Positions 1 through 64,000 of a stretch of DNA of 64,000 nt are shown here, piece after piece. The stretch is from Lingula anatina. Lineage: Eukaryota > Animalia > Brachiopoda. The first letter of the stretch is position 1. Each line of letters starts with the position of its first letter. Below the pieces are notes generated by a model, which ran no database searches, was not told the DNA's origin, and worked only from the letters and a program-made list of their open reading frames with translations. Where the stretch lies: positions 18,166,001-18,230,000 of the forward strand of contig CM120640.1 in the NCBI GenBank assembly GCA_051362555.1. The letters are read 5' to 3'. Both the position numbers and the translations under genes were made by a program.

Positions 1-262
1 AAGAGGGTTCGATCTCGGTTTGCTTTGTGGCCAAATTATTTACACTTTGCTTGATGTCTGAGTGCCAGATAGAGGGAGTCTGGGCTCTCCTTTTTGGTCG
101 TGCACCAGTAGCGTTTTTATGCCCATTTTCTTTTGGAGAAATTTCGACCGCCAGAACCCCTTGCTTGCTATCAGCTGTTTGCTTCATCATGCATTCTGCT
201 GTTTGTGCTTTACGTTTGGTCATAGCTTGTTTTTCTGACACCAGGTTAGAATATTCCTCTGC
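1..262 (-). CDS. Exon of giant gene, truncated by the window edge (AEEYSNLVSEKQAMTKRK...KQTEIEPS)
   Basis: TAG acceptor at 263-265; open frame to position 1; runs into an IEPx motif like the other exons. Confidence 0.7.
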
Positions 263-3200: not shown

Positions 3201-6200
3201 AAAGGTCAGTTCATGGTGAAAAGTAGATCAAAAGTCTATTTCAGGGTCACAGTTAGATTGCCAGTATATGACTTCCTATTCAAGTTCAATAATAACTATG
3301 GGCGTATCTTTGCCGTTTTTGGAGATATAAAGATCAGAAAATTTGCAAAGTGCAGTTTATCATGAAAAATAGGTCAAAGGTCAATTTCAAGGTCACAGTT
3401 AGATTACCCGCATATGACTTATTATTAAACTTCAATAGTAACTATAGAAATATCTCTACCAGTTTTGAAGACAAAGGGAAAGAAAATTTGCAAATTTCAG
3501 TTCATGATAAAAAGTAGGTCAAAGATCAATTTACAGGTCACACTTAGATTGCCAGTAAATGACTTCCTATACAAGTTTAATAGTAACTATGGGTGTATCT
3601 CTGCCAGTTTTGGAGATATAAGGGAAACCTTGCATAGTGCGGTTCATGGTGAAAAGTAGGTCAAAGGTCAAATATAAAGTCACAGTTACATTGCCAATAT
3701 ATGACTTCCTATTCAAATTTAATAGTAACTATGGGCGTATCTTTGCCAGTTTTGAAAGTATAAGCACTGAAAAAGTTGCAAAGTTCAGTACATGGTGAAA
3801 AGTAGGTTAATGGCAATTTTAAGGTCATAGTTAGATGCCAGTATATGACTTCCTATTCAATTTCTATAGTAACTATGGGCCTATCTCTGCCAGTTTTGGA
3901 GATAAAAGAGATGGAAAATTTGCAAAGTTCAGTTCATGATGAAAAGTAGGTTAAAGGTCAATTTAAAGGTCACACTTAGATTGCAATTATATGACTTCCT
4001 ATTCAAATTCAATAGTAACTATGGGCGTATCTTTGTCAGTTTTGTAAGTATAAGCACTGAAAAATTTGCAAAGTTCAGTTCATGATGAAAAGTAGGTTAA
4101 AGGTCAATTTAAAGGTCACACTTAGATTGCAATTATATGACTTCCTATTCAAATTCAATAGTAACTATGGGCGTATCTTTGTCAGTTTTGTAAGTATAAG
4201 CACTGAAAAAGTTGCAAAGTTCACTTCATGGTGAAAAGTAGGTCAAAGGTCAATTCTAAGGTCACAGTTAGATTGCCAGTATATGACTTTCTATCCAAGT
4301 TCAATAGTAACTATGAGCGTTTCCTTGCCAGTACGTTTTGGAGATATAAGGGACAGAAAAGTTGCAAACTTTAGATTTTAGTGAAAAGTAGGTCAAAGGT
4401 CAATTTCAAGAACACAGATTGCCAGTATAAGAGTTCCTATTCAACTTCAGTAAAAACTATGGGCCTATCTATGCCAGTTTTGGAGATATAAGAAACTTAA
4501 ATGTTGCAAAGTCCAGTTCATGGTGAAAAGTAGGTCACAGGTCAATTTCAAGGTCACTGTTAAATTGCCAGTATATGACTTCCTATTCAACTTCAATAGT
4601 AACTATGGACCTATCTCTACTAGTTTTGGAGATATAAGGGACTAAATGTTACAATTTTGTAGTTACAATAATGTGCCATAAAATTCCTACAGAAGAAATT
4701 AATTGAAATAAAGAAAAGGTCATTTTGGTTGAAATTCTTGATATGGGAGGTTCTCAGAAATTCAAGATGTTCTAATTTCATGAAATGATGTCATTTTTGA
4801 CCAGAAGTTGTCTGCTTCACCAAGTCTTGTTATCTTTTCCAGACGTTCAAAATTTTATGCATATTACCTTATTGCACATTTTACTTTCACCAGCACAATG
4901 CACTTTGTGATACAGCATAACTTGTAAACCGTATGAAAAACAAAAAACAGAGACCACCTCCAGTGTTGGGCTTGACATGCTCTATCAAATGCAAAAAACA
5001 AGGGGTCTCTATTTTGGCATCCAATGGCTGCTGCTCCTGTGAAAATGCACCGATTGACCTCAAACTCACGGAGATGAAAGATGACCTGATGGGTAACACC
5101 TGCCAATAAAATTATAGGTAAAGTCTGTGTAGTGTCTGAATTGTAGCGCAAATAATTTTTTTTTTTGTAAAAAATTCTTTTTTTTTTTTTTGAAAATTTT
5201 GGCCCATTTCACCTTGAAATAAAGGTCAAAGGTCAAATACAAGGGCATATTTGAAATCTCCACATATGATTTTCGGTCGGTTGTCTGTAGAAAATTCTCC
5301 CATAATTCCTATGGCAGATAATTAGCATTTAATTTTGCCAATTTTGGACAAGGCTGCATTGCAATGAGTGCCACACCTAGACCCCAGCACCAACAAAGCC
5401 CACATTTTATGTGGGGTGAGTTGAAATTATAGGTGACCTAAATCCAAGAGATGGGTACACAGGCCCTTGTAGTCTAGGAGGAAAAGCAGTAATGGTAACA
5501 TGACGGAGGAGCAGGCGGAACGATCCGGACCAGATTAAAACCATGTGTACCGCCAGCACCTACGCTGGTGGTACAATAACAAGTTCTCCAAAAGATTGAA
5601 AACAAATTTATGAAGCAAAGTTCACGATTTGGTCTTTATCATATGATATGAAAAAATATTGGCAAACATTTCTTATCAGAGTTAATGTACTTATGACTCT
5701 GAGAAATACATAGTACCACTTATTATTAAAGATGCAAATATCACAAATAGCTGGTAAAATGAACTTCAGAAACGTTTGGTGATAACCCGAAGAAAAAGTG
5801 TGTGTCAGTAATTGTTTACCTCAGTTTTCGGCAAAGTGGGTTCAATCTTATCTTGTTCCATTGTCAAAGAGGAACGTTTTTGGATGCATGGAATTTTACT
5901 TGTTTCTCGTCCCACGTTCTTCATATTTTGATTCACACTATCCACTTCCTCTTTTCCTTCATCCATGTATCTTTTGACCTGTTTTTCTTTGTCAGCTGTG
6001 ATAACGCTGGCTTTGGCGATGCTTGATTCTCTTAACTGTTTGGTTTCAGGTATTTCCATTAAGCTTTTGGTATTTTTTGCCTTAAGCAATGATTGATAAT
6101 GGCATATTAGTGATAAAATATACAAAAACCTCTTTTTAAAAGCAAGGTTTCTAATGAACAAAAATTCATAACGACTTAATAAATGATTTTGGCCCATTTC

Positions 6201-9200
6201 TGATCAAGTTTGCAACATGTTTATAAAAATGAAAAGCTTTAAGTAAATTATAGCATGCGTCTTCAGCAGCTGATTTCATGACAAACATTAAGAATGTTAA
6301 TTTCATCAGTATATGTATTCTAACCCATGAAAAATCCAATTCATCCCTTAAAACAGGGCATGCAACTATATCAAAGCTGTTAAAAATGAAAGACATTTGA
6401 CATTTCCTAAATTACTTACCTCAGTTTCCTGCAAAGTGGGTTTGATCCTTAATTGTTCAGAGGCCATAGATGTACTTTTTTGGATGCAGGGTACTTGGTC
6501 CATATCGTCTTTTTTCAATGCTTGTGCTTTAGATACAGGTCCCATCAGTAAAATGCTAGGGTCTATCAAGTCTTCTATGATGGAGGACATGACATTGTCA
6601 GGGAAGACGAGTGTTTTTCCATGGAAACTCTGTCTTAACAAATTAATGTTTGAATCAATGTCCACAGGAGAAACAAAAAGACTCATGGTCTCACTTTGAC
6701 TTTGCAGTGTTTCTTTTTTCCTGTCTTCTTTCGTGCTGCCAACAAACTCTCCAGAATCTTCTGTCTCAGCTACATGTAAAATGCTCTGGATTTTCTTGGC
6801 CTATATTTATAAGATTTTATCATTAATGATCAAGTAAATAACAAGTTCTACAAAAAAAATGAAAACAAATTTACAAAGCAAAGTTCACAATTTGGTCTTT
6901 ATCATATGATATGTAAAAATATTGACAAAAATTTCTTATACATGTAAGACTTAATGTACTTATGACTCTGAGAAATGCATAGTACCACTTATTATTAAAG
7001 ATGCAAATATCACAAATAGCTGGTAAAATGAACTTCAGAAACATTTGGTTATAACCCAAAGAAAAAGTGTGTCAGTAATTGTTTACCTCAGTTTTCGGCA
7101 AAGCGGGTTCAATCTTATCTTGTTCCATTGTCAAAGAGGAACGTTTTTGGATGCATGGAATTTTACTTGTTTCTTGTCCCATATTCTTCATATTTTGATT
7201 CACACTATCCACTTCCTCTTTTCCATCATCCGTGTATCTTTTGACCTGTTTTTCTTTGTCAGCTGTGATATCGCTGGCTTTGGCGATGCTTGATTCCCAT
7301 AACTGTTTGGTTTCAGGTATTTCCATTAGGCTTTTGGTATTTTTTGCCTTAAGCAATGATTGATAATGGCATATGAGTGATAAAATATACAAAAATCTCT
7401 TTTTAAAAGCAAGGTTTCTAATGAACAAAAATTCATAACGACTTAATAAATGATTTTGGCCCATTTCTGATCAAGTTTGCAACATGTTTATAAAAATGAA
7501 AAGCTTTAAGTAAATTATAGCGTGCGTCTTCAGCAGCTGATTTCATGAGAAACATTAAGAATGTTAATTTCATCAGTATATGTATTCTAACCCATGAAAT
7601 CCAATTCATCCCTTATAACAGGGCATCCAACTATATCAAAGCTGTTAAAAATGAAAGACATTTGACATTTCCTAAATTACTAACCTCAGTTTCCCGCAAA
7701 GTGGGTTCGATCCTTAATTGTTCAGAGGCCATAGATGTAGTTTTTTGGATGCAGGGTACTTGCTCAATATCGTCTTTTTTCAATGCATGTGCTTTAGATA
7801 AAGGTCCCATCAATAAAATGCTAGGGTCTATCAAGTCTTCTATGATGGAGGATACAACATTGTCAGGGAAGACGAGTGTTTTTCCATGGAAACTTTGTCT
7901 TAACAAATTAATGTTTGAATCGATGTCCATAGGAGAAACAGAAAGACTCATGGTCTCACTTTGACTTTGCAGTGTTTCTTTTTTCCTGTCTTCTTTCGTG
8001 CTGCCAACAAACTCTCCAGAATCTTCTGTCTCAGCTACATGTAAAATGCTCTGGATTTTCTTGGCCTATATTTATTAGATTTTATCATTAATGATCAAGT
8101 AAATAACAAGTTCTACAAAAAAATGAAAACCAATTTACAAAGCAAAGTTCACAATTTGGTCTTTGTCATATGATATGAAAAAATACTGACAAAAATTTCT
8201 TATACATGTAAGACTTAATGTACTTATGACTCTGAGAAATGCATAGTACCACTTTTTATTAAAGATGCAAATATCACAGATAGCTGGTAAAATGAACTTC
8301 AGAGACGTTTGGTTATAACCCGAAGAAAAAGTGTGTGTGTCATTTATTGTTTACCTCAGTTTTCGGCAAAGCGGGTTCAATCTTATCTTGTTCAATTGTC
8401 AAAGAGGAACGTTTTTGGATGCATGGAATTTTACTTGTTTCTTGTCCCACATTCTTCATATTTTGATTCACACTATCCACTTCCTCTTTTCCATCATCCG
8501 TGTATCTTTTGACCTGTTTTTCTTTGTCAGCTGTGATATCGCTGGCTTTGGCGATGCTTGATTCCCTGAACTGTTTGGTTTCAGGTATTTCCATTAGGCT
8601 TTTGGTATTTTTTGCCTTAAGCAATGATTGATTATAGCATATTAGTGATCAAATATACAAAAAGCTAATTTTAAAAGCAGACCAAAATTCATAACAACTT
8701 AATAAATGATTTTGGCCCATTTCTGATCAAGTTTGCAACATGTTTATAAAAATGAAAAGCTTTAAGTAAATTATAGCGTGCGTCTTCAGCAGCTGATTTC
8801 ATGAGAAACATTAAGAATGTTAATTTCATCAGTATATGTATTCTAACCCATGAAATCCAATTCATCCCTTATAACAGGGCATCCAACTATATCAAAGCTG
8901 TTAAAAATGAAAGACATTTGACATTTCCTAAATTACTAACCTCAGTTTCCGGCAAAGTGGGTTTGATCCTTAATTGTTCAGAGGCGATAGATGTAGTTTT
9001 TTGGATGCAGGGTACTTGCTCCATATCGTCTTTTTTCAATGCATGTGCTTTAGATAAAGGTCCCATCAATAAAATGCTAGGGTCTATCAAGTCTTCTATG
9101 ATGGAGGATACAACATTGTCAGGGAAGACGAGTGTTTTTCCATGGAAACTCTGTCTTAACAAATTAATGTTTGAATCGATGTCCACAGGAGAAACAGAAA

Positions 9201-12200
9201 GACTCATGGTCTCACTTTGACTTTGCAGTGTTTCTTTTTTCCTGTCTTCTTTCGTGCTGCCAACAAACTCTCCAGAATCTTCTGTCTCAGCTACATGTAA
9301 AATGCTCTGGATTTTCTTGGCCTATATTTATTAGATTTTATCATTAATGATCAAGTAAATAACAAGTTCTACAAAAAAATAAAAACAAATTTACAAATCA
9401 AAGTTCACAATTTGGTCTTTGTCATATGATATGAAAAAATATTGACAAAAATTTCTTATACATGTAAGACTTAATGTACTTATGACTCTGAGAAATGCAT
9501 AGTACCACTTTTTATTAAAGATGCAAATATCACAAATAGCTGGTAAAATGAACTTCAGAAAGGTATGGTTATAACCTGAAGAAAAAGTGTCAGTAATTGT
9601 TTACCTCAGTTTTCAGCAAAGCGGGTTCAATCTTATCTTGTTCCATTGTCAAAGAGGAACGTTTTTGGATGCATGGAATTTTACTTGTTTCTTGTCCCAT
9701 ATTCTTCATATTTTGATTCACACTATCCACTTCCTCTTTTCCATCATCCGTGTATCTTTTGACCTGTTTTTCTTTGTCAGCTGTGATATCGCTGGCTTTG
9801 GCGATGCTTGATTCCCATAACTGTTTGGTTTCAGGTATTTCCATTAGGCTTTTTGTATTTTTTGCCTTAAGCAATGATTGATAATGGCATATGAGTGATC
9901 AAATATACAAAAACCTCTTTTTAAAAGCAAGGTTTCTAATGACCAAAATTCATAACAACTTAATAAATGATTTTGGCCCATTTCTGATCAAGTTTGCAAC
10001 ATGTTTATAAAAATGAAAAGCTTTAAGTAAATTATAGCGTGCGTCTTCAGCAGCTGATTTCATGAGAAACATTAAGAATGTTAATTTCATCAGTATATGT
10101 ATTCTAACCCATGAAATCCAATTCATCCCTTATAACAGGGCATCCAACTATATCAAAGCTGTTAAAAATGAAAGACATTTGACATTTCCTAAATTACTAA
10201 CCTCAGTTTCCGGCAAAGTGGGTTTGATCCTTAATTGTTCAGAGGCGATAGATGTAGTTTTTTGGATGCAGGGTACTTGCTCCATATCGTCTTTTTCAAT
10301 CTTATCTTGTTCAATTGTCAAAGAGGAACGTTTTTGGATGCATGGAATTTTACTTGTTTCTTCTCCCACATTCTTCATATTTTGATTCACACTATCCACT
10401 TCCTCTTTTCCATCATCCGTGTATCTTTTGACCTGTTTTTCTTTGTCAGCTGTGATATCGCTGGCTTTGGCGATGCTTGATTCCCTGAACTGTTTGGTTT
10501 CAGGTATTTCCATTAGGCTTTTGGTATTTTTTGCCTTAAGCAATGATTGATTATAGCATATTAGTGATCAAATATACAAAAAGCTAATTTTAAAAGCAAA
10601 GTTTCTAATGAACAAAAATTCATAACGACTTAATAAATGATTTTGGCCCATTTCTGATCAAGTTTGCAACATGTTTATAAAGATGAAAAGCTTTAAGTAA
10701 ATTATAGCGTGCGTCTTCAGCAGCTGATTTCATGACAAACATTAAGAATGTTAATTTCATCAGTATATGTATTCTAACCCATGAAATCCAATTCATCCCT
10801 TATAACAGGGCATCCAACTATATCAAAGCTGTTAAAAATGAAAGACATTTGACATTTCCTAAATTACTTACTTCAGTTTCCGGCAAAGTGGGTTCGATCC
10901 TTAATTGTTCAGAGGCCATAGATGTAGTTTTTTGGATGCAAGGTAATTGCTCCATATTGTCTTTTTTCAATGCATGTGCTTTAGATAAAGGTCCCATCAA
11001 TAAAATGCTAGGGTCTATCAAGTCTTCTATGATGGAGGATACGACATTGTCAGGGAAGAGGAGTGTTTTTCCATGGAAACTCTGTCTTAACAAATTAATG
11101 TTTGAATCGATGTCCACAGGAGAAACAGAAAGACTCATGGTCTCACTTTGACTTTGCAGTGTTTCTTTTTTCCTGTCTTCTTTCGTGCTGCCAACAAACT
11201 CTCCAGAATATTTTGTCTCAGCTACATGTAAAATGTTCTGGATTTTCTTGGCCTATATTTATAAGATTTTATCATTAATGATCAAGTAAATAACAAGTTC
11301 TACAAAAAAAATGAAAACCAATTTACAAAGCAAAGTTCACAATTTGGTCTTTGTCATATGATATGAAAAAATATTGACAAAAATTTCTTATACATGTAAG
11401 ACTTAATGTACTTATGACTCTGAGAAATGCATAGTACCACTTTTTATTAAAGATGCAAATATCACAAATAGCTGGTAAAATGAACTTCAGAGACGTTTGG
11501 TTATAACCCGAAGAAAAAGTGTGTGTGTCATTTATTGTTTACCTCAGTTTTCGGCAAAGCGGGTTCAATCTTATCTTGTTCAATTGTCAAAGAGGAACGT
11601 TTTTGGATGCATGGAATTTTACTTGTTTCTTGTCCCACATTCTTCATATTTTGATTCACACTATCCACTTCCTCTTTTCCATCATCCGTGTATCTTTTGA
11701 CCTGTTTTTCTTTGTCAGCTGTGATATCGCTGGCTTTGGCGATGCTTGATTCCCTGAACTGTTTGGTTTCAGGTATTTCCATTAGGCTTTTGGTATTTTT
11801 TGCCTTAAGCAATGATTGATTATAGCATATTAGTGATCAAATATACAAAAAGCTAATTTTAAAAGCAAAGTTTCTAATGAACAAAAATTCATAACGACTT
11901 AATAAATGATTTTGGCCCATTTCTGATCAAGTTTGCAACATGTTTATAAAGATGAAAAGCTTTAAGTAAATTATAGCATGCGTCTTCAGCAGCTGATTTC
12001 ATGACAAACATTAAGAATGTTAATTTCATCAGTATATGTATTCTAACCCATGAAATCCAATTCATCCCTTAATACAGGGCATCCAACTATATCAAAGCTG
12101 TTAAAAATGAAAGACATTTGACATTTCCTAAATTACTAACCTCGGTTTCCGGCAAAGTGGGTTCGATCCTTAATTGTTCAGAGGCCATAGATGTAGTTTT

Positions 12201-42200: not shown

Positions 42201-45200
42201 TTCATGAAGCAAAGTTCACAATAAGGTCTTTATCATATGATATGAAAAAATATTAACAAAAACTTCTTATGAGACTTAATGTACTTATGACTCTGAGAAA
42301 TGCACAGTACCATGCACTCATTATTAAAGATGCAAATATCACAAATAGCTGGTAAAATGAACTTCAGAAACGTTTGGTTGTAACCCGGAGAAAAAGTGTC
42401 AGTAATTGTTTACCTTAGTTTTCGGCAAAGTGGGTTCAATCTTATCTCGTTCTATTGTCAAAGAGGAACGTTTTTGGATGCATGGAATTTTACTTGTTTC
42501 TCCTCCCCCTTTCTTTATATTTTGATTGACACTATCCACTTCCTCTTCTCCATCATCCATGTATCTTTTGACCTGTTTTTCTTCATCAGCTGTGGTAATG
42601 CTGGCTTTGGCGTTGCTTGATTCCCTTAACTGTTTGGTTTCAGATATTTCCATTAGGCTTTTCGTGTTTTTTGCCTTAAGCAATGATTGATAATGGCATA
42701 TTAGTGATCAAATATACAAAAAGCTCTTTTTAAAAGTGAGGTTTCTAATGAACAAAAATTCATAACGACTTTATAAATGATTTTTAGCCCATTACTGATC
42801 AAGTTTGCAACATGTTTAAAAAGATGAAAAGCTTTAAGTTAATTATATTATTACATGTGTCTTCAGCAGTTGATTTCATGAGAAACATTAAGAATGTCAG
42901 TTTCATCGGTATATGTATTCTAACCCATGAAATCCAATTCATCCCTTATGACAGGGCATGCAACTATATCAAAAGCTATTAAAAATGAAAGACGTAACAT
43001 TTCCTGAATTACGTACCTCAGTTTCCAGCAAAGTGGGTTTGATCCTGAATTGTTCAGAGGCCATAGATGTACTTTTTTGGATGCAGGGTACTTGGTCCAT
43101 ATCGTCTTTTTTCAATGCTTGTGCTTTAGATACAGGTCCCATCAATAAAATGCTAGGGTCTATCAAGTCTTCTATGATGGAGGACACAACATTGTCAGGG
43201 AAGACGCATGATTTTCCATGGAAACTCTGTCTTAGCAAAATAATGCTTGGATCAATGTCCACAGGAGAAACAGAAAGACTCATGGTCTCACTTTGACTTT
43301 GCAGTGTTTCTTTTTTCCTGTCTTCTTTCCTGCTGCTATCAAACTCTCTTGAATGTTCTCTCTCAGCTACATGTAAACAGCTGTGAATTTTCTTGGCCTA
43401 TATTTATAAGATTTTATCATTAAGGATCAAGTCAATAACAAGTTCTACAAAAAAAATGAAAACAAATTTACAAAGCAAAGTTCACCATTAGGTCTTTATC
43501 ATATGATATGAAAAAATATTGACAAAAATTTCTCATAAGACTTAATGTACTTATGACTCTGAGAAATGCATAGTACCGCTTATTATTAAAGATGCAAATA
43601 TCACAAATAGCTGGTAAAATGAACTTCAGAAACGTATGGTTATAACCTGAAGAAAAAGTGTCAGTAATTGTTTACCTCAGTTTTCGGCAAAGTGGGTTCA
43701 ATCTTATCTCGTTCTATTGTCAAAAGGGAACGTTTTTGGATGCATGGAATTTTACTTGTTTCTCCTCCCCCTTTCTTTATATTTTGATTGACACTGTCCA
43801 CTTCCTCTTCTCCATCATCCATGTATCTTTTGACCTGTTTTTCTTCATCAGCTGTGGTAACGCTGGCTTTGGCGATGCCTGATTCCCTTAACTGTTTGGT
43901 TTCAGATATTTCCATTAGGCTTTTCGTGTTTTTTGCCTTAAGCAATGATTGATAATGGCATATGAGTGATCAAATATACAAAAAGCTCTTTTTAATAGCA
44001 AGGTTTCTATGAACAAAATTCATAACAACTTAATAAATGATTCTGGCCTATTAATATTAATGATCAAGTTTGCAACACTTTTATAAAGATGAAAAGCTTT
44101 AAGTAAATTATATTATTACATGTGTCTTCAGCAGTTGATTTCATGAGAAACATTAAGAATGTCAGTTTCATCGGTAAATGAATTCTTACCCATGAAATCC
44201 AATTCATCCCTTATGACAGGGCATGCAACTATATCAAAAGCTGTTAAAAATGAAAGACGTAACATTTCCTGAATTACGTACCTCAGTTTCCAGCAAAGTG
44301 GGTTTGATCCTGAATTGTTCAGAGGCCATAGATGTACTTTTTTGGATGCAGGGTACTTGGTCCATATCGTCTTTTTTCAATGTTTGTGCTTTAGATACAG
44401 GTCCCATCAATAAAATGCTAGGGTCTATCAAGTCTTCTATGATGGAGGACACGACATTGTCAGGGAAGATGCGTGATTTTCCATGGAAACTCTGTCTTAG
44501 CAAAATAATGCTTGGATCAATGTCCACAGGAGAAACAGAAAGACTCATGGTCTCACTTTGACTTTGCAGTGTTTCTTTTTTCCTGTCTTCTTTCCTGCTG
44601 CTATCAAACTCTCTTGAATGTTCTCTCTCAGCTACATGTAAACAGCTGTGGATTTTCTTGGCCTATATTAATAAGATTTTATCATTAATGATCAAGTAAA
44701 TAACAAGTTCTACAAAAGAATGAAAACAAATTCATGAAGCAAAGTTCACAATTAGGTCTTTATCATATGATATGAAAAAATATTGACAAAAATTTCTTAT
44801 AAGTCTTAATGTACTTATGACTCTGAGCAATGCATAGTACCACTTATTATTAAAGATGCAAATATGCAGATAGCTGGTAAAATGAACTTCAGAAACATTT
44901 GGTTATAACCCGAAGAAAAAGTGTGTGTCTCATTAATTGTTTACCTCAGTATTCAGCAAAATGGGGTCAATCTTATCTTGTTCCATTGTCAAAGAGGAAC
45001 GTTTTTGGATACATGGAATTTTACTTGTTTCTTGTCCCCCTTTCTTCATATTATGAATCACACTATCCAGTTCCTCTTTTCCATCATCCATGTATCTTTT
45101 GACCTGTTTTTCTTCGTCAGCTGTGGTAACCCTGGCTTTGGCGATGCCTGATTCCCTTAACTGTTTGGTTTCAGATATTTCCATTAGGCTTTTGGTGTTT

Positions 45201-48200
45201 TTTGCCTTAAGCAATGATTGATAATGGCATATTAGTGATCAAATATACAAAAAGCTCTTTTTAATAGTAAGGTTTCTAATGAACAAAAATTCATAACGAC
45301 TTTATAAATGATTTTTAGCCCATTACTGATCAAGTTTGCAACATGTTTAAAAAGATGAAAAGCTTTAAGTAAATTATATTATTACATGTGTCTTCAGCAG
45401 TTGATTTCATGAGAAACATTAAGAATGTCAGTTTCATCGGTATATGTATTCTAACCCATGAAATCCAATTCATCCCTTATGACAGGGCATGCAACTATAT
45501 CAAAAGCTATTAAAAATGAAAGACGTAACATTTCCTGAATTACGTACCTCAGTTTCCAGCAAAGTGGGTTTGATCCTGAATTGTTCAGAGGCCATAGATG
45601 TACTTTTTTGGATGCAGGGTACTTGGTCCATATCGTCTTTTTTCAATGCTTGTGCTTTAGATACAGGTCCCATCAATAAAATGCTAGGGTCTATCAAGTC
45701 TTCTATGATGGAGGACACGACATTGTCAGGGAAGACGCGTGATTTTCCATGGAAACTCTGTTTTAGCAAAATAATGCTTGGATCAATGTCCACAGGAGAA
45801 ACAGAAAGACTCATGGTCTCACTTTGACTTTGCAGTGTTTCTTTTTTCCTGTCTTCTTTCCTGCTGCTATCAAACTCTCTTGAATGTTCTCTCTCAGCTA
45901 CATGTAAACAGCTGTGGATTTTCTTGGCCTATATTTATAAGATTTTATTATTAAGGATCAAGTCAATAACAAGTTCTACAAAAAAAATGAAAACAAATTT
46001 ACAAAGCAAAGTTCACCATTAGGTCTTTATTATATGATATGAAAAAATATTGACAAACATTGCATTTAAAAGTTTTTGTACTTATAACTCTGAGAAATGC
46101 ATAGTACCGCTTATTATTAAAGATGCAAATATCACAAATAGCTGGTAAAATGAACTTCAGAAAGGTATGGTTATAACCTGAAGAAAAAGTGTCAGTAATT
46201 GTTTACCTCAGTTTTCGGCAAAGTGGGTTCAATCTTATCTCGTTCTATTGTCAAAGAGGAACGTTTTTGGATGCATGGAATTTTACTTGTTTCTCGTCCC
46301 CCTTTCTTCATATTTTGATTGACACTATCCACTTCCTCTTCTCCATCATCCATGCATCTTTTGACCTGTTTTTCTTCGTCAGCTGTGGTAACCCTGGCTT
46401 TGGCGATGCCTGATTCCCTTAACTGTTTGGTTTCAGATATTTCCATCAGGCTTTTGGTGTTTTTTGCCTTAAGCAATGATTGATAATGGCATATTAGTGA
46501 TCAAATATACAAAAAGCTCTTTTTAAAAGTGAGGTTTCTTATGAACAAAAATTCATAACGACTTAATAAATGATTCTGGCCTATTAATATTACTGATCAA
46601 GTTTGCAACGCTTTTATAAAGATGAAAAGCTTTAAGTAAATTATAGCGTGCGTCTTCAGCAGCTGATTTCATGAGAAACATTAAGAATGTTAATTTCATC
46701 AGTATATGTATTCTAACCCATGAAATCCAATTCATCCCTTATAACAGGGCATGCAACTATATCAAAAGCTGTTAAAAATGAAAGACATGTAACATTTCCT
46801 GAATTACGTACCTCAGTTTCCAGCAAAGTGGGTTTGATCCTGAATTGTTCAGAGGCCATAGATGTACTTTTTTGGATACAGGGTACTTGGTCCATATCGT
46901 CTTTTTTCAATGCTTGTGCTTTAGATACAGGTCCCATCAATAAAATGCTAGGGTCTATCAAGTCTTCTATGATGGAGGACACGACATTGTCAGGGAAGAC
47001 GCGTGATTTTCCATGGAAACTCTGTCTTAGCAAAATAATGCTTGGATCAATGTCCACAGGAGAAACAGAAAGACTCATGGTCTCACTTTGACTTTGCAGT
47101 GTTTCTTTTTTCCTGTCTTCTTTCCTGCTGCTATCAAACTCTCTTGAATGTTCTCTCTCAGCTACATGTAAACAGCTGTGAATTTTCTTGGCCTATATTT
47201 ATAAGATTTTATCATTAAGGATCAAGTCAATAACAAGTTCTACAAAAAAAATGAAAACAAATTTACAAAGCAAAGTTCACCATAAGGTCTTTATCATATG
47301 ATATGAAAAAATATTGACAAAAATTTCTTATAAGACTTAATGTACTTATGACTCTGAGAAATGCATAGTACCACTTATTATTAAAGATGCAAATATCACA
47401 AATAGCTGGTAAAATGAACTTCAGAAACATATGGGTATAACCTGAAGAAAAAGTGTCAGTAATTGTTTACCTCAGTTTTCGGCAAAGTGGGTTCAATCTT
47501 ATCTCGTTCTATTGTCAAAAGGGAACGTTTTTGGATGCATGGAATTTTACTTGTTTCTCCTCCCCCTTTCTTTATATTTTGATTGACACTGTCCACTTCC
47601 TCTTCTCCATCATCCATGTATCTTTTGACCTGTTTTTCTTCGTCAGCTGTGGTAACACTGGCTTTGGCGATGCCTGATTCCCTTAACTGTTTGGTTTCAG
47701 ATATTTCCATCAGGCTTTTGGTGTTTTTTGCCTTAAGCAATGATTGATAATGGCATATGAGTGATCAAATAAACAAAAAGCTCTTTTTAATAGCAAGGTT
47801 TCTAATGAACAAAAATTCATAACGACTTAATAAATGATTCTGGCCTATTAATATTAATGATCAAGTTTGCAACACTTTTATAAAGATGAAAAGCTTTAAG
47901 TAAATTATATTATAACATGTGTCTTCAGCAGTTGATTTCATGAGAAACATTAAAAATGTCAGTTTCATCGGTATATGAATTCTAACCCATGAAATCCAAT
48001 TCATCCCTTATAACAGGGCATGCAACTATATCAAAAGCTGTTAAAAATGAAAGACATGTAACATTTCCTGAATTACGTACCTCAGTTTCCAGCAAAGTGG
48101 GTTTGATCCTGAATTGTTCAGAGGCCATAAATGTACTTTTTTGGATACAGGGTACTTGGTCCATATCGTCTTTTTTCAATGCTTGTGCTTTAGATACAGG

Positions 48201-51200
48201 TCCCATCAATAAAATGCTAGGGTCTATCAAGTCTTCTATGATGGAGGACACGACATTGTCAGGGAAGACGCGTGATTTTCCATGGAAACTCTGTTTTAGC
48301 AAAATAATGCTTGGATCAATGTCCACAGGAGAAACAGAAAGACTCATGGTCTCACTTTGACTTTGCAGTGTTTCTTTTTTCCTGTCTTCTTTCCTGCTGC
48401 TATCAAACTCTCTTGAATGTTCTCTCTCAGCTACATGTAAACAGCTGTGGATTTTCTTGGCCTATATTTATAAGATTTTATTATTAAGGATCAAGTCAAT
48501 AACAAGTTCTACAAAAAAAATGAAAACAAATTTACAAAGCAAAGTTCACCATTAGGTCTTTATTATATGATATGAAAAAATATTGACAAACATTGCATTT
48601 AAAAGTTTTTGTACTTATAACTCTGAGAAATGCATAGTACCGCTTATTATTAAAGATGCAAATATCACAAATAGCTGGTAAAATGAACTTCAGAAAGGTA
48701 TGGTTATAACCTGAAGAAAAAGTGTCAGTAATTGTTTACCTCAGTTTTCGGCAAAGTGGGTTCAATCTTATCTCGTTCTATTGTCAAAGAGGAACGTTTT
48801 TGGATGCATGGAATTTTACTTGTTTCTCGTCCCCCTTTCTTCATATTTTGATTGACACTATCCACTTCCTCTTCTCCATCATCCATGTATCTTTTGACCT
48901 GTTTTTCTTCGTCAGCTGTGGTAACGCTGGCTTTGGCGATGCCTGATTCCCTTAACTGTTTGGTTTCAGATATTTCCATCAGGCTTTTGGTGTTTTTTGC
49001 CTTAAGCAATGATTGATAATGGCATATTAGTGATCAAATATACAAAAAGCTCTTTTTAATAGCAAGGTTTCTAATGAACAAAAATTCATAACGACTTCAA
49101 AGTTCACAATTAGGGTATGCAACTATATCAAAGCTGTTAAAAATAAAAGATGTGTAACATTTCCTGAATGATGTACCTCAGTTTCCGGCAATGTGGGTTC
49201 GATCCTGAATTGTTCAGAGGCCATAGATGTACTTTTTTGGATGCAGGGTACTTGGTCCATATCATCTTTTTTCACATTTTGATTGACGTAGTCCTCGGCA
49301 TTGTACTCAGGTTTAGTCACCACAGTTGAAAGTGTCAGATGGAAGGACTCCCGTTGCCAGGCATTGGCCACATCTTTAACTTTAGGTGCCGGTCTTTCAA
49401 AAGGGGGTCTCTGCAAATTTTGTGTCATAAATTTGTAACTGGGCAGGGACGTTCTCATCAATACAATTGGTTTCTTTCCATTGACGCGCTTTTTCTTTGA
49501 TATGGTGTTTTTTGTAACACTGCTAATCTCATTCCCTTTTGATTGTTTGGTGGGATAATGTATGACCAAAGGAGGTAAGTCACTTTCTGTTAGAGTTTCT
49601 TGGGTAACATCTGCCGAGGCTGCTGTCTCTAACTCAGTGTCCTCTTGCACTTTTGATAAGCTGTCTGTGGTCACTACATGTTTTTCTGGTGGCAGATTGG
49701 GGGAGTTTGATTTCTCCACCTGTAATAAGAATGACAGTAGATAAAACAGACATATTTCAAACATCAACAGTTAGTGATCATTAATGATCAAGTGATGACA
49801 GGTCCTAAAAATGATGAAATGGTATAAATGAACCAATTAACATTACAAGGTCTTCGTCATAATTTTCTTTAGCGAAAAAAATTGAGAAAAATTACTTTCA
49901 TAATAGATGTTATTTATTAGCTATGAAAGGTATTTTACCACTAATAACAGAAATGTGTCATAAATTTACCACAGTTTCCAGCAAAGTGGGTTCAATCTTA
50001 ACTTGTTCTGCTGCCACACCTTTGTCATCTGTGTTTCTTATGATTTGTTTTTTGTTGTCAACAGTAACAATGCTGGCTTTGACGACACCTTGTTCACTTA
50101 ACCGTTTGGTTTCAGGTATTTCCATCAGACTTTTAGTGATCTTTGCCTTAATAATTAATGATAACTTATTAATGATCAAGCCTACAACAACTTCTTTATA
50201 TAGGTGAAAAAATTTAATAAACAAAATTGAATCATCCCAGCAGACAAACGACATTGATTCACCGTTGAATCAACGTTAATTTTGGTGGATCAACGTTGAA
50301 TCAACGTAGAATCAATGTCGTTTGCCTGCTGGGATAATGCTTTAATAATTTATGGCTTAAAGGGATAATAACTCTCCGTATGAGATCTATATTTCACAAT
50401 AAAAACATTGTTAGTAACTCATAGAAATATCATATATTCTGTTTTACCACAAAAACAGCAGTTATAGCTATTATTCTGATATCTGAGCTTGTCTTTAGAC
50501 CACGTGACCTCCATTGATGGCTATACTCTGTTAAATGTATTATAACTCATGAAATCTAATGCATCGCTTATAACAGGCAGGCAACAGGCAGGCAAAGCTG
50601 CTAACAGAAGAAGATGGGTGTCATTTCTTAAATTGCTTACCTCAGTTTCTGGCAAAGCAGGTTTAATCTTTATTTGTTCAGAGGCCATAGAGGCACTATT
50701 TAGATCTTCACACACAGGGCTCAGGTCCTCTTTCTTCACATTCTGATTGACGAGGTCTTTGGCATTGTATTCGGGTTTGCTCGCCACTGTTGGTAGTTTC
50801 GGACTGAAGGACCTCTGTTGCTCTGTGTCGGCCACAGCTGTTACTTTCGGTGCTGGTATTTCAGCAAGTGATGCCTCCGAGTCTTGTGTCATGAACTTAT
50901 ATTTGGGCAGAGAAGATGTTCTCATCAAAATGGTTGGTTTCTTTCCATTTCCATGCTTCTTCTTCGATTTGGGGACTTTTGATAAACCGTCAGTCTCTTT
51001 TGTTGGATCATATTTGGGCAACTGAAAAAAGCCATTTTCCATTATAGCTTCTTGGGTTACAAGAGAAAGGTTAAACAGGTCATTGTCCTTCTCATCTGCC
51101 GAGGCAGGTACCTTAAAAGTCCCATCCTTTTGCATTTTAAAGAAGCTGGCTTTGGTCACAGCATGTTTTTTTGATTGTAGATTGAGGGACTTCTTTTTCT

Positions 51201-52557
51201 CCATCTGTAAGAAGAATATCAATAGATTAACTATACATATTCCAAACGTTAGTTATTTATTCTCTAAAACCGAGAGGAAAATTAAGTCCAAATGTCACCG
51301 ACTCCTGTTATGTATCTTAGCCTTACGTCACCCATTCCATCCAATTAATTTAACATGAGCATGTTTAAAAAAAATTTAAACAGATGTTAAGTATCCAATA
51401 TTTCTGAGATTTCCTTTCCTAGATTGTACCTGGTCTTTGATCCTATCTGAAATGTTCTTTATCTTTTCCCTGCTAAGGTGTTTAACCACTGGAATATCAG
51501 GCTTTTTAGTATTTTTGCTTCTCTTTCCTTCATCTCTCTGTGTTTCTTTTCGCACTTTTGATAAACTGTCTTTGGTTACAGTGCGTTTTTCTGATAGCAG
51601 ATTGGGTAGCTGAGATTCCGCCTCCTGAAATATATGTAAAAACGCCACTATATTAAATTAAAACATTACTAGTAAGTTAAAATTGTTCTCTTAACCTGAG
51701 AGGGACATATATGGTCACACTGATCCTTCATCTCTTACCTGAAGCATATTACCTTAAGTTTTATCATTTAGTTATTTACGATAACTATTTTCCTCTATTT
51801 TAAGTTGTACCTTCAGTGTTTTTGTCCCGTTTTTCGGGCTGGATTTAATGTGGTTTTTTCTGCTGAGACGCTGAACCACCGGAACCCCGTGCTTCCCGAC
51901 ATTTTGCTCTCTCGTCCTGTTAGATGTTTGCTCTTTAGATGTATGTTCAATCAGTAAAATGGTAGGGTCCCTCGCATCTATGCTGTTTGATACATGGCTT
52001 TGTCTGGGGGGACGACTGCGCAGCCTTGATAAAATGATGCTTGGATCAACGTATATTGGAGAGGCTGAAATAAGGCAGGTTTCGATCTGATGCTGTAGTG
52101 TGAGAAGGGTCTGATCTCCCAACTCGATTTCCTTCCCGCCAGTCTGTTGGACGACTCTGGCCGTAATTGGTTCTTTGGTATGCTGAGCACTCAAACTATT
52201 CACCTAAATTCGAAATAGATATTTTATTTAAAATACATTTTATGGATCTTAAGATTCCCTGCTTAAAGGTATCATACCTGGGATTTCCCCAACCTAATTG
52301 AATTTTCTTTGAATAAAATTTTCTCCCACTCACCAACCATTGACCGACCCGACCCTGCACTTGTAAATATAAATAATTTAGTTTTAAATTACTGCCCACT
52401 CACCAAGACCTCTATGTCTTCATAAATATTTCATAAAGAATTACATTATTTCTAATATATGCATCTGCTTAAAAGATTTATATTATGTAATTTATTGTTA
52501 TTTTATTATTTTCAATCAAGCAAACTATTCATCATCTATGTATTCACAACCGCGTCA

Positions 52558-52607
<50 letters not shown>

Positions 52608-55044
52608 TTACCTGTACAATGATGTTCTGGAATTGATCAACCTTGATAATGTGTTTGCAAATTTCAAGTGAACGAGTGACTTCCAGGTCTCTGAATTTCC
52701 GTAGCTGTTCAACGTGAACGTGGGGCTGAATTAAGAATAAAATGAGTATTATTTGAAATTATGATCTGCTGTTTAATTTACTAGATTTTACTAGATTTAA
52801 AGGTGAACTTGAATAAGTTTACGTCCTTTTATATTAATGTCTGGGACAACATGAAAGGTAACCCGTGATTTTGATGGTCAAAACATTACCAAAATTTGAT
52901 GGTCAAAACATTACAAAACATAAGCAAAAATAATCTAACGGTTAGCATTCTATATCATAGTTTAACAACTACTGGCATTGTATTTTTATATCAATTAAGA
53001 AAACATTAAAGTTTTAATGCAGATGTTAACCCTTTTTTGTCACAAAACAAACCTTTCTGATCTCCACGGCCCGTGTGTTCTGCCATTCCTTTAAGTAGAG
53101 CTTTACTAGGGGGTGGACCTACAGTGAAAAAATTACATTACTTATGACATATTTCCATATGTTTTTTTTTTCTCTTTAATACATATAAATTGAAACAATA
53201 TTTTATCATAAATCAAACAAGTTATCGTCTAAGTATTCACAACTATTCCAATAATAATAATAATTATTATAAAACACCTGTGCACGGATGTTCTGGAATT
53301 TGTCAACCTTGATTATATGCTTGCACATTTCAAGTGAACGAGTTACTTCCTGGTCTCTAAATTTCCGTAGCTGTTCAACGTGAATGTGGGGCTGAATTGA
53401 AAAGAAAATAACTATCATTTGAACGTTTGATCAGATGTTAAATATACTATCATGTCTTATTGAATGATTAGATGGCCTATTATATTCATGTTTGGGAGAC
53501 CATAAAAGGTTATCCATGTTTTGTCGGGTCATAACAACTTTCAGCTGCCTTGTCCGTCCACCGAAAGATCTAAAGCTTTTTCATACTGTATAACCATTCA
53601 GCATGCGTGTACTGTTATTGGACTTTAAAATGTTATTATAAAAAAGAAACAATCTTTTTTCATATCAGAATACTCACCTCTCTAGCCACAACTGCCCTTT
53701 GATTCTGCCATTCATTTATGTGCAGCTTTACTAGGGAATGGACCTACAGTGAAATGATTATAGCCCTTTTACTTCTGACATATATCTATCTGTATTTTTT
53801 AACAAATATTGTCAAATAATATATGTTTATTATCAATGAAACAAACTATAAATTCTTTATCATCTAAGCGCTAAGGTCCACTTCAGTTATGAGAAAACGT
53901 ACCTGCACAAGAGTATTCTGGATTTTGTTTATCTTGAAAATATTTCTGCAAATTCCATGCACACATGTAACTTTCATGTCTTTTAATTTTCTCATCCGTT
54001 CAACATGAACGTGGGGCTGAATGTTTAGAAACATGGCTCATTAGAAATATTAAGCATTTGTATATTTCCCTCATATCAAGTTATGCTGTAATTAAATAAT
54101 TAGTTTCCGTAGATTAAGCAAAGAGCATTCCCCTTTCAAGCTCTATATACCATTACGTAATCCTAGAAATATCAAGTGAAATTCGCTTTGATTTGAAAAA
54201 ATTACACGATATCAAATAAATATATCAATTAAGCTTTACCGGTGCAACATATCAAAGTATATTGTTATATTGTAAGAAAAGAACACCAGCGCTGTTATTT
54301 GTCTAAATCTTACCCGCCTCAACAAGACCGCACGGTTGTTCCTGTAGCGGAGCGTCTTAGCAGCGGCTCTTTTGCGCTCGGCTGTAATCGACCAACAACA
54401 CGTTAATTGAATCAATTATCAAAAACTTTGTAACTTTTATGATGAAAGTGCGATCTGGATTTACGTTACCAATGTGCACCTTCCGGATTAAAAGCAGCAC
54501 TTATCAACATGTGCATTTAACTGAACTCATAAAGCGTAAATAAATACAAACAATATTCTTATCAAGATAAATAAGAGGAATATATAAGATTGATTTATAG
54601 TACATATTTTAAACTCTTACCGCGTTTTCTTTCATTCCTTTTGAGACAGTAAACTGAAATAAATAACACGCAGGGGATATACATGTCACCAGCAGTTCTT
54701 AGACTGAGATTCTGACACATGGCAACGGTCAGCTCTCTGACTCTCAGGGCGAGTTTCGTTCACATAAGACCTGTACTAAACTAACTGAACATAGCACTTT
54801 AAAAAATGACAAATAATGAATGATATAATATGATATTAGGCATATTTTTAGGATTAAAGATTTTAACATCAGTGAATGCTGACTTACCTTTCACATAGGC
54901 GACGAAGAATGCCAGCATCATTCCCAGAGCGAAACATACGAACAAAATAAGATCACTGTTGATTTTGTCCCATTGCTCTTCTAAGGACAACTCTTCAAAT
55001 AAGAATATTCTTATTTTGTTATGATGATACGAGCTACTTCGCAT
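1..55044 (-). CDS. Giant multi-exon gene (about 75 exons in the window, 3' end outside it): predicted membrane-anchored, highly repetitive K/S/E/T-rich protein of at least ~8,500 aa, function unknown
   Basis: Chain of open exons with AG acceptors and GT donors and compatible phases (1, 1, then 0 from exon 3 onward), starting at ATG 55044. Exon lengths measured from exon 4 onward are all multiples of 3. The interval includes introns. Confidence 0.8.
433..627 (-). CDS. Exon type V (195 nt, VDKSKPLKLQ...GVKEQ)
   Basis: CAG|...|GTACG boundaries, phase 0; same length as and homologous to exon 51430-51624. Confidence 0.75.
1096..1356 (-). CDS. Diverged exon type X (261 nt)
   Basis: AAG|GCA...GAG|GTAAAC; homologous to the array X exons. 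Confidence 0.75.
1524..1754 (-). CDS. Short exon type W (231 nt, GEISKPPNL...LLDTE)
   Basis: CAG|...GAG|GTAAGC, phase 0; shares PEYNAxDxVNQN with exons 49177-49719 and 50641-51204. Confidence 0.75.
2044..2490 (-). CDS. Diverged Y-like exon (447 nt)
   Basis: TAG|GCC...CAG|GTATGA, phase 0; contains SPVDIDPSIISLRQSFHGK...INPSILLMGP. Confidence 0.75.
2528..5575. mobile_element. Non-autonomous Helentron/HINE-like rolling-circle element in an intron
   Basis: Interrupts CAAGTAA|ATAACAAG, which is intact in paralogous introns, with no clear TSD. Left end ACTAG. Subterminal TATTGTACCACCAGC (2562-2576) is inverted at 5564-5578. Terminal hairpin TGTACCGCCAGC-ACCTAC-GCTGGTGGTACA (5546-5575). Central tandem array. 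Confidence 0.75.
2880..4650. repeat. ~146-bp tandem satellite, about 12 copies, inside the HINE-like element
   Basis: AAAAGTAGGTCAAAGGTCAATTT...TGACTTCCTATTCAA...AGTAACTATGGG recurs at 3371, 3516, 3658, 3804, 3948, 4094, 4240, 4390 and 4532. Confidence 0.9.
5820..12497 (-). repeat. Left exon-array block: ~1.26-kb X+Y units (5 X exons, 5 Y exons, 1 X/Y fusion exon), coding
   Basis: For example X 5820-6080 (261 nt), Y 6420-6800 (381 nt), fusion 10202-10534 (333 nt), short Y 12141-12497 (357 nt); recurring ORFs in the track. Confidence 0.88.
12637..12834. mobile_element. 198-bp PIF/Harbinger (Tourist)-like MITE
   Basis: Insertion relative to paralogous introns (TTCTTATAAGAC); TAA duplicated at 12634-36 and 12835-37; degenerate terminal inverted similarity (ATTxCC..ATCGAxCTA..TGGGG..TCAC). 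Confidence 0.6.
12979..32281 (-). repeat. Central exon-array block: 27 copies of fused exon Z (8 long 459 nt, 19 short 435 nt) plus intron; 742/718-bp units, coding
   Basis: ORF-track copies from 12967 to 31835; long+short dimers of ~1461 bp up to ~23.9 kb, then exact 718-bp monomers; TAG|GCC...GAG|GTAAAC boundaries. Confidence 0.9.
34345..34499 (-). repeat. 3' LTR (155 bp)
   Basis: Identical to 38981-39135; preceded on the minus strand by the polypurine tract (A-run then GGGGGA, 34500-34514); contains AATAAA on the minus strand. Confidence 0.95.
34815..38801 (-). CDS. Gag-Pol polyprotein (single ORF)
   Basis: Two Cys/His knuckles (CKFCGKNH..C, CSKCKASNH..C), protease IDSGA, RT with IADD core, RNase H (CDAS, IEKE, TDHKPL), integrase HHCC and D-D-E (DLF, SDNGPQF, GKAE), order PR-RT-RH-IN. 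Start taken at MAEGG; an in-frame upstream ATG exists at 38846. Confidence 0.95.
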   Translation of the reverse strand: MAEGGQSDDHNNFASPFFNVKPPEPVTLTKNKQENWKLWKQLWSHYSVVSNLDSKTEQYKKSLFISVMGIEALRVYNGCDPADTDTVEDILGKLDSHILGETNETFERYQFNTRCQAKGETIEDYVSVLKELAKTCNFCNCMRDSLLRDRIIIGVIDSNVRKRLFQEKNLTLERSIDICRSYESTSRHMSLLNDSVISDNSLHVVRKLDKKKNKQPVRKFPTPSIIQCKFCGKNHPRKKELCPAWGKQCSKCKASNHFAICCPTVKKVHGVSDESFTLCVTDDTQVNSVNGGPICAQMSLENGKQVIFQIDSGASVNVIPEKYVQGTKLEHSKTTLSVYNRSKVKPIGKCLLTLDNAGKFYLVEFQVVKENFQPIISRETAELMNLITVNYDNFQQVDAVNSHSNCEAMISQYDSVFATNGLIGQLPGAVHIKVQEDSKPVQCPPRRVPVSVKPKLKEELENLVRLDVITPVSEPTEWCSQISIQTKKNGDIRICIDPRPLNEVLQRERYQLPTIEDVLPELSDAKIFSTVDLAHGYWHCILDEESSNLTTFITPFGRYRWKRLPFGLKVSSEIFQRKLNESLEGLSGVICIADDILVYGKSTEDHDHNLKRLLDRCAEKGIKLNKQKSVFCTSEVGFMGHTITNQGLKADQSKIEAILRLENPTDVEGVRQLLGSVTYLSKFLPKLATVVEPIRRLTRLDTEFLWTDEQDRAMSELKALLTSAPVLSYYDASKELFVQCDASSTGLGAALLQDGRPVAYASRALSATEQGYAQIEKECLAMVFAMEKFHQYTFGRHTTIHTDHKPLEMIVRKPLHKAPKRIQGMLLRLLKYDTTVIYKRGKEMFIADMLSRNYLPNMTDESDHFEQINVIGNIKMSSERLGELRDATLKDDTMNLLKSVIVKGWPESKDYVPSQIMPYFSYRDELAVHSGLIFKGDRVVVPAAARKAIKDHLHTSHLGGDSMLRRARECIFWPGMTADIRQTAEVCDACQSYQRSQQRETLTPIDSQAPYEKVGLDLFTVENHDYLISVDYYSGFWECDKLTDTSSNSVIKCLKRHFSRYGIPSTVISDNGPQFCSEEFRNFAATWDFEHYTSSPYHASANGKAESAVKAAKTMIQKCVKSRTDPFLALLEIRNTPTQSMGTSPAQRFLNRRTRTLLPVTDKLLQPRGNDYFQLDKYQLKCEKDSQCRKYNEHAHDLPPLEEGDTVRMKPFRLNQKEWQKGVVTRRLDERSYEIDTPTGLFRRNRIHLKKTKESPPNLIVKSQSEKSVPITQSTCQKSCVKVKDSLKQPVSVKVPENIVKPQKATVPTRRSTRTVKKPVYLKDFVPK
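38970..38980 (-). promoter_or_regulatory. Primer-binding site, tRNA-Leu-like
   Basis: TGGTGGCAGCG directly after the 5' LTR, complementary to the ...CGCUGCCACCA 3' end of eukaryotic tRNA-Leu(AAG/UAG). Confidence 0.75.
38981..39135 (-). repeat. 5' LTR (155 bp)
   Basis: Identical to 34345-34499. Confidence 0.95.
49177..49719 (-). CDS. Exon type W with a Y-type C-terminus (543 nt)
   Basis: CAG|GTG...GAG|GTACAT, phase 0; ORF 49123-49767. Confidence 0.8.
49970..50146 (-). CDS. Diverged short X-type exon (177 nt)
   Basis: AAG|GCA...GTG|GTAAAT, phase 0. Confidence 0.7.
50236..50333. mobile_element. 98-bp palindromic MITE, EnSpm/CACTA-like (CCC...GGG ends, 2-bp TSD)
   Basis: TIRs CCCAGCAGACAAACGACATTGATTC / GAATCAATGTCGTTTGCCTGCTGGG; AT duplicated on both sides; paralogous intron (~1461-1480) lacks it. 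Confidence 0.75.
50641..51204 (-). CDS. Exon type W (564 nt)
   Basis: CAG|ATG...GAG|GTAAGC, phase 0; ORF 50521-51222. Confidence 0.8.
51430..51624 (-). CDS. Exon type V (195 nt)
   Basis: CAG|GAG...CAG|GTACAA, phase 0. Confidence 0.75.
51811..52203 (-). CDS. Highly diverged Y-like exon (393 nt)
   Basis: TAG|GTG...AAG|GTACAA, phase 0; SPIYVDPSIILSR and DPTILLI motifs. Confidence 0.72.
52559..52606. repeat. (TAA)16 microsatellite
   Basis: Direct reading; abuts the donor of exon 52612-52725. Confidence 0.95.
52612..54016 (-). CDS. Exons 4-8: alternating 114-nt (53903-54016, 53278-53391, 52612-52725) and 66-nt (53678-53743, 53053-53118) repeat exons
   Basis: All AG/GT bounded and phase 0; PHVHVEQLRKFRD.EVTRSLE.CKHIIKVD.FQN and VH.LVKL...EWQN.RAV repeats. 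The interval includes introns. Confidence 0.8.
54314..54381 (-). CDS. Exon 3 (AERKRAAAKTLRYRNNRAVLLRR)
   Basis: CAG|...|GTAAG, phase 1 to 0. Confidence 0.72.
54621..54653 (-). CDS. Exon 2, 33-nt microexon (VYCLKRNERKR)
   Basis: TTTCAG|...|GTAAG, phase 1 to 1. Confidence 0.68.
54888..55044 (-). CDS. First coding exon, with predicted transmembrane helix (LILFVCFALGMMLAFFVAYV)
   Basis: ATG at 55042-55044; AAG|GTAAGT donor; ~20-aa hydrophobic run followed by basic residues from exons 2-3. Confidence 0.72.
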
Positions 55045-55137
55045 AGTAAATTATTTCAAAATATAACTTATTCATCTTGTCCATCACTATTACCATCCAT
55101 GATTCGTAAACGATATCTATGGAAATGACCTACTCTG

Positions 55138-55296
55138 TGATGTCACTACCTGTCATGTCAGCACATTATGACGTCAACGTTTACAACAGTGTCAATAATA
55201 TGGCAAACGTCATTTTTGTTGAGAACAATGAGTATCAACAATAGGAACGACACTGGGGTCATGACAACGACCCACTGCGAGTTAACTGTGACGTCA
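55138..55296. promoter_or_regulatory. Candidate proximal promoter with CRE palindromes
   Basis: TGACGTCA at 55169-76 and 55289-96, TGATGTCA at 55138-45, 95-250 bp upstream of the ATG. Confidence 0.4.
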
Positions 55297-63902: not shown

Positions 63903-64000
63903 CTGAAAATAAAACATTCAATACCTACAAGTAAATGATATTTGCAGTATTTCTTTCCGAATTGTCATATTCTGTGTGAATTATTCTAAACATTTAGTTG

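Follow-up and report, generated by a model that had tools for sequence, protein, structure and literature searches.

The satellite-like repeats in this 64-kb stretch of Lingula anatina DNA (the whole stretch analyzed, hereafter the window) are best explained as part of a spliced, lineage-specific gene in which 57 exons are repeated in tandem and in frame, and which would encode a single-pass membrane protein of ~8,900 residues whose predicted cytosolic repeats would form a long flexible tether of maintained length; we give this reading a probability of roughly 0.55. The exons were read from the minus strand and assembled by script.

The Repeat Blocks Form One Minus-Strand Reading Frame

Self-comparison of the window identified three repeat blocks, one at 12.8-32.7 kb with a period of ~720 bp, and two (39.1-49.1 kb and 5.6-10.3 kb) with a period of ~1,265 bp; this satellite-like block spans ~43 kb in the middle of the gene. 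Within the window, the minus-strand gene comprises 75 exons (25,479 nt, 8,493 codons) in one frame with no stops, and its introns have AG acceptors (74/74) and GT donors (74/74) throughout. A previous sequence-only reading had proposed one minus-strand frame of ~8,500 aa up to the window end, composed of 13 N-terminal, 19 right-block, 27 central, 11 left-block, and 5 further exons, and the scripted assembly returned exactly these counts. The claim that all cassettes are in phase 0-0 also held for 57 of the 57 tandem cassettes, the lengths of which are multiples of 3 in every case. There are three cassette types (A, n = 16; B, n = 14; C, n = 27), encoding units of 87-153 aa.

Exon N1 (54888..55044, minus strand as all exons below) starts with the ATG and encodes a short acidic N-terminus followed by a predicted transmembrane helix at residues 33-51; a candidate acceptor at 54980, which would serve a hypothetical exon upstream of N1, has a poor score. 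Exons N2 and N3 (54314..54653) encode a basic juxtamembrane segment, with phases 1-1 and 1-0 that close the frame. Exons N4-N8 (52612..54016), of 38 and 22 codons, correspond to older repeats of ~60 aa, and exons N9-N13 (49177..52203) are relatives of the cassette and T exons that are older and have diverged. In the right block (32561..49000), 10 A exons (261 nt) alternate with 9 B exons (381 nt) in units of ~1.26 kb, while the central block (12979..32281) consists of 27 C cassettes of 435 or 459 nt, in units of ~720 bp arranged as a two-unit higher-order repeat. The left block (5820..12497) contains 6 A and 5 B exons, among them a 333-nt recombinant of an A head with a B tail and a B of 357 nt. 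Finally, exons T1-T5 (2..2490) lead to the start of the window, beyond which the gene continues. The model includes no stop-bearing terminal exon from N1 to the window end. The central block is known from this assembly alone; of its 26 units, 20 are distinct, an argument against its being a simple assembly echo.

A Gene Model From Another Assembly Backs the Exon Ends

A HMMER search with the cassette profile against 1.84 billion protein representatives retrieved one real match, P0001 (E = 5e-213), a 1,348-aa singleton cluster from NCBI/UniRef sources that is a gene model of another assembly. P0001 consists of 10 segments joined at predicted exon ends in the order A-B-A-B-A-(B/T1)-T2-T3-T4-T5, with 91-100% identity per matched exon and lower identity at the fused B/T1 segment. 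Its T exons are nearly those of the window (T5, 87/87; T3, 85/87; T2, 73/77; and T4, 59/65 identical residues), and its cassettes are closest to the left-block copies. Since P0001 is itself a prediction, it backs the exon ends and not the protein.

P0001 reaches 391 residues past the window, for a combined total, taken across two assemblies, of ~8,880 aa. It also retains five extra residues at T1, the end of which probably lies at 2044 and not at 2059. The last B is fused to T1 in P0001 and separate in the window, so that the array differs between assemblies, in line with the earlier suggestion that protein length can change by copy number. Moreover, the first residue of P0001 is an internal Met of an A cassette, inside the array, which bears out the expectation that annotation would fragment this gene.

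Selection Acts on the Reading Frame

None of the 139 distinct substitution variants between copies introduces a stop, compared with 6.3 expected (P about 0.002, an approximate value, as two C classes have variants in common). Every exon length class is divisible by 3, in contrast to the intron gap runs, 16 of 21 of which are out of frame. Stops and frameshifts are absent from the right- and central-block copies as well. For the young repeat copies, pN/pS was 0.84, not significantly below 1 (p = 0.22), and eight spacer pairs gave dN/dS values of 0.42-0.98. The N4-N8 duplicates had dN/dS values of 0.26-0.30 in all three pairs (N6 used twice), indicative of purifying selection. We conclude that the reading frame is under selection and that the amino acids of the repeats are nearly neutral.

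Database Searches and Origin of the Cassettes

The sequence-only reading had recognized no domain, and Pfam gave nothing above cut-off in 18 exon translations (E 0.5) or in P0001, with Ig, FN3, and kringle domains absent from these scans. Three length-limited searches were performed: none of 344 candidates was homologous to N13 among proteins of 318-2000 aa, none of 30 to the N4/N6/N8 alignment among proteins of 75-2000 aa, and among 1,377 candidates for the C-terminal 226 aa of P0001 (proteins of 397-2000 aa) only P0001 itself was. No match was found for B in the Atlas, and none among the PDB sequences or in Rfam (0 matches). Several candidates were rejected, including DUF5641 for N9 (Atlas leads below 0.9 only) and P0002 and P0003 (HMMER, E about 5e-6 and 5e-5), which are unrelated low-complexity repeats with only a DP.IL-like word in common. 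The likeness of the C-terminus to N4-N8 did not reach significance (lowest p among 7 tests, 0.02). In the main texts searched, there was no description of the gene, and four of its repeat peptides appeared in none of these papers; supplementary proteome or expression tables could name it. The relevant part of PMC8830517 provides general background only.

Within the gene, identity was 31% for N9 to C and 53-55% for N11/N13/T2, with N10 related to T4 and N12 to A. Exons N9-N13 and T1-T4 are older relatives of the cassettes, and the homology of N9-N13 to both the array and the T exons connects the 5' part with the array through common descent. The link of the anchor to the array is inferred from phase, from homology, and from the lack of a terminal exon between them.

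The C cassette is an in-frame fusion of a B head and an A tail. In the history of the array, an A-B doublet was amplified together with its introns, a deletion then generated C by joining the head of a B in frame with the tail of an A, and C was amplified 27-fold with the 459/435 two-unit repeat. Copies cluster mostly by block, with several tree forks weakly supported, as would be expected of unequal crossing-over and conversion.

Spliced Reads and the Extent of the Transcript

Four of nine same-species RNA runs (X1, X4, X7, and X9) were mapped to 48030-55300, using 6-30% of each run. A minus-strand GT-AG intron at 49001-49176, which corresponds to the predicted E|AKN join, is spliced out in nine reads, of which five are from X1 and four from X4; short-read counts at this junction, proposed earlier as a check of the gene, were therefore positive in two of the four runs. 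The first mates of these reads are on the plus strand, the orientation expected of minus-strand RNA, with two start places each (main rows). This is 1 of 14 joins predicted within the mapped stretch 48030-55300, and no spliced join was found there in the partial runs X7 and X9. In the four runs, no read covers an A-to-B join and no cassette-skipping join was seen, at a depth too low for a test of skipping. Exons N1-N12 had zero depth in all four, except for 0.13 in one bin of X9. With one join type read and N1-N12 without depth, splicing proceeds as predicted at that join, and the gene is nearly silent in these samples.

The spliced reads differ at 6-10 places from the mapped copy and resemble left-block copies; they derive from alleles or copies other than those mapped. 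The X4 variants (E-27, T-19, V-16, L-11, I+10, and A+11), tallied per run and unphased across reads, equal the P0001 join 421/422, and two of them (V-16 and A+11) are present in no B or A copy of the window. As a separate observation, X1 gave ~1x depth over the B exon (48030-48758) from reads that run opposite to the spliced ones and carry variants typical of C or left-block B; these reads may be antisense RNA or DNA. A short intronic interspersed element at 50357-50535 attracted RNA reads in both orientations at a depth of up to ~1,100, and these reads extend into unrelated sequence, indicating that they come from many other copies.

Regarding the splice sites, the in-frame B/C acceptor scored -1.2, and an out-of-frame AG located at -47 or -45 scored 6.7 (training set of 14 sites); this competing upstream AG, overlooked in the sequence-only reading, reads TAG in 39 of 42 copies. 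The A-type acceptor is used in the reads despite an equally poor score (-2.4). A TTGATCAYTAAT-like box is located at a fixed distance upstream of the acceptor in 16/16 A, 12/14 B, and 26/27 C cassettes.

A putative promoter on the minus strand (55169..55296) includes two perfect CRE palindromes TGACGTCA at 55169 and 55289, and a half site at 55207. These palindromes, the only two in 64 kb, precede the ATG by ~120 and 240 bp, a position that supports a promoter there; the chance of two within 300 bp is about 2-4e-6, for a pattern noticed post hoc. CREs have been described to mark CREM targets in spermatids and to occur also in somatic CREB targets, and testis promoters prefer CRE-like over full sites (PMC3091680). 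We therefore rejected the CRE as proof of testis expression, for which it is weak, and regard a role in the germ line as no more than a lead. The gene is probably expressed mainly in some tissue or stage outside the four runs; the male germ line is one candidate, at less than even odds. Further upstream, a stretch at 55490-55750 (minus strand) resembles a coding remnant, a 34-bp minisatellite (14 copies) occupies 58942-59426, and 63700-63924 holds the final coding exon of a neighboring minus-strand gene further upstream, which has a TSP1 domain of spondin-like type (PF19028, E = 2.6e-17) and may serve as a synteny anchor.

The cassette intron 39224-34081 harbors a Ty3/Gypsy-type LTR retrotransposon (34345..39135, minus strand) in the orientation of the gene, which the sequence-only reading had also overlooked. 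This element has identical 155-bp LTRs, a 5-bp target duplication, and a single open frame of 1,359 codons from stop to stop with RVT_1, RNase H, Integrase_H2C2, and rve domains (order RT-RH-IN), and is apparently very recent and intact. Each LTR carries a sense AATAAA, which could truncate the transcript of this allele. Two other insertions were observed in introns. One of 3 kb (2530-5571) contains a 146-bp tandem array of 11.5 copies (2970-4641) and a subterminal inverted repeat of 11 bp, ends in CTAG on the minus strand, and resembles a non-autonomous Helitron/Helentron-type element. The second (~198 bp, 12640-12835) is in the intron between the central and left blocks, flanked by an apparent TTA duplication.

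These data raise the alternative that the locus is real and the full-length giant is rarely made, with shorter products arising from separate 5' and 3' transcripts, or from messages that mostly skip the recently amplified right and central blocks or are cut short at the LTR, so that the array is tolerated and not selected. The reads are of left-block type only with none on N1-N12, P0001 spans only the 3' 1,348 aa, and pN/pS is nearly neutral (0.84), all of which fit such products, as do the weak acceptors, the LTR polyadenylation signals, and the 0-0 phase that renders skipping harmless. However, the right and central copies are equally free of stops and frameshifts, and the model lacks a stop-bearing terminal exon between N1 and the window end. 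Moreover, the A acceptor is used in spite of its equally weak score, and B and C share its TTGATCAYTAAT-like box. Poly(A) libraries have a 3' bias, which on a 27-kb message would yield the same read pattern. On balance, we regard shorter products as unlikely, albeit as an alternative to be taken seriously.

Predicted Topology and Composition of the Protein

As the sequence-only reading had claimed, only the N-terminus is hydrophobic: a single 19-mer (residues 33-51) reaches a Kyte-Doolittle value of 2.62, followed by a runner-up of 1.26, and the C-terminal 390 aa of P0001 contain no hydrophobic helix (maximum 0.65). The helix is preceded by 32 residues and flanked by one K+R before and seven after. 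By the positive-inside rule, the basic flank faces the cytosol, which places the region after the helix on the cytosolic side and predicts an N-out/C-in topology with cytosolic repeats. After the helix come about three 60-residue repeats (N3-N8) and then roughly 8,000 residues of S/K/E/I/L/T-rich repeats. The K/S/E/T-rich composition described earlier is correct (S 11.5, K 11.2, E 8.3, and T 6.7%) but incomplete, as I (8.0%) and L (7.5%) are also high; Pro amounts to 4.7%. Charged residues make up 31%, with a net charge of +88 over 8,493 residues.

The charge-hydropathy value (0.426 vs. 0.417) lies on the order/disorder boundary. Of the three cassette types, A falls on the disordered side, and B and C fall just across the line on the folded side. 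AlphaFold predicted mostly coil for the C cassette (pLDDT 46, pTM 0.13) and long helices for the P0001 C-terminal segment (pLDDT 47, pTM 0.25), both at low confidence; this segment is also more aromatic. The spacer is likely disordered. Two candidate motifs were rejected: the EB1-binding SxIP, since S-x-I-P is present in 16/16 A cassettes but failed the context rule and is lost in 27/27 C cassettes, and an enrichment in PKA sites (p = 0.27).

A lone N-terminal hydrophobic helix followed by S/T-rich repeats would also suit a polyprotein resembling mucins, adhesives or matrix proteins, in which the helix would serve as a type II anchor or an internal signal and the repeats would face outward or be released. 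The presence of about one N-glycosylation sequon per C cassette (28 in 27) and of one or two Cys per cassette fits this possibility. The excess of basic residues after the helix speaks against it, as do the near absence of sequons from A (0) and B (1 in 14) and the absence of furin-type sites (R-x-K/R-R) from the 57 cassettes. The charge content of 31% and Pro below 5% are likewise unlike mucins, and we consider this arrangement improbable.

That the locus is a non-coding satellite, a decayed gene or an assembly artefact, its frames open merely through the youth of the copies, would agree with the very low read depth and with the nearly identical central copies seen in one assembly, but is already largely refuted and highly improbable given the stop-free variants with in-frame indels only, dN/dS <1 in old duplicates, the distinct central units, and the spliced reads with a matching model from another assembly. 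Taken together, frame selection, spliced reads, and the P0001 model support a real spliced gene and not a satellite, as had been proposed.

Comparison With Known Tandem-Exon Genes

In primates, the NBPF/Olduvai (DUF1220) genes contain lineage-specific exon doublets amplified in tandem with their introns, together with higher-order repeats and recombinant exons, and encode a disordered product (10.1101/2021.07.06.450945). The A-B doublets and two-unit repeats described here share this design, which does not imply homology: the units are of 87-153 aa instead of ~65 aa and follow a predicted membrane anchor, there was no Olduvai Pfam match in the 18 exon translations or P0001, and the furin site found once per expanded NBPF unit has no counterpart in the 57 cassettes.

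Chicken BG proteins, members of the butyrophilin family, are membrane proteins with a long cytoplasmic tail encoded by many tandem exons, the number of which differs among genes and haplotypes (PMC5938342). These proteins have an Ig-V ectodomain and 21-nt heptad exons that form a coiled coil of 27-38 heptads, whereas here we found no Ig match, only 32 residues before the helix, exons of 261-459 nt, and a C cassette modeled mostly as coil; the tail would be of ~8,800 aa.

The layout is also reminiscent of p180/RRBP1, which has an N-terminal membrane anchor, long cytosolic tandem repeats, and a helical C-terminal part (PMC12491259). In our case, the anchor and the cytosolic side are predicted from hydropathy and flanking charge, and instead of the 54 strongly basic decapeptides of p180 there are long, nearly charge-neutral units without a Pfam or homolog match. 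Many in-frame exons are also present in titin PEVK and LPA KIV-2, whose length varies by splicing and by copy number, respectively. The present gene differs from both in having no Ig, FN3, or kringle domain and in a composition that is not PEVK (Pro 4.7%). As the sequence tests for NBPF/Olduvai, chicken BG, and p180/RRBP1 failed, the gene is a member of none of these. The design of a tandem-exon repeat gene is already known; its sequence and scale are new.

A Proposed Long Tether Under Selection for Length

In the reading we favor, one transcript would run from N1 to the end of the gene, and the helix would anchor the protein N-out/C-in, leaving a huge repeat region in the cytosol, as suggested by the flanking charge. 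The spacer would be flexible, with selection acting on its length and not on its exact sequence, and the predicted helical C-terminal segment may bind a partner. The array would grow and shrink by unequal crossing-over. A more specific version, in which a ~27-kb message yields an 8,000-residue cytosolic spacer that works as a tunable ruler, with unequal crossing-over setting its length in each allele and phase-0 skipping setting it in each cell, within a restricted cell type (for example, developing sperm), is speculative and rather unlikely.

The search of 1.84 billion protein representatives yielded no relative but a fragment of the same gene, and P0001 is an example of how annotation masks or fragments such genes. 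One of the larger animal proteins can have its coding core in a 43-kb block that looks like satellite DNA. The locus records stepwise repeat-protein evolution, from a doublet to an in-frame fusion exon, its 27-fold amplification, and allele differences, and offers a case in which selection on length and frame, as opposed to residues, can be tested.
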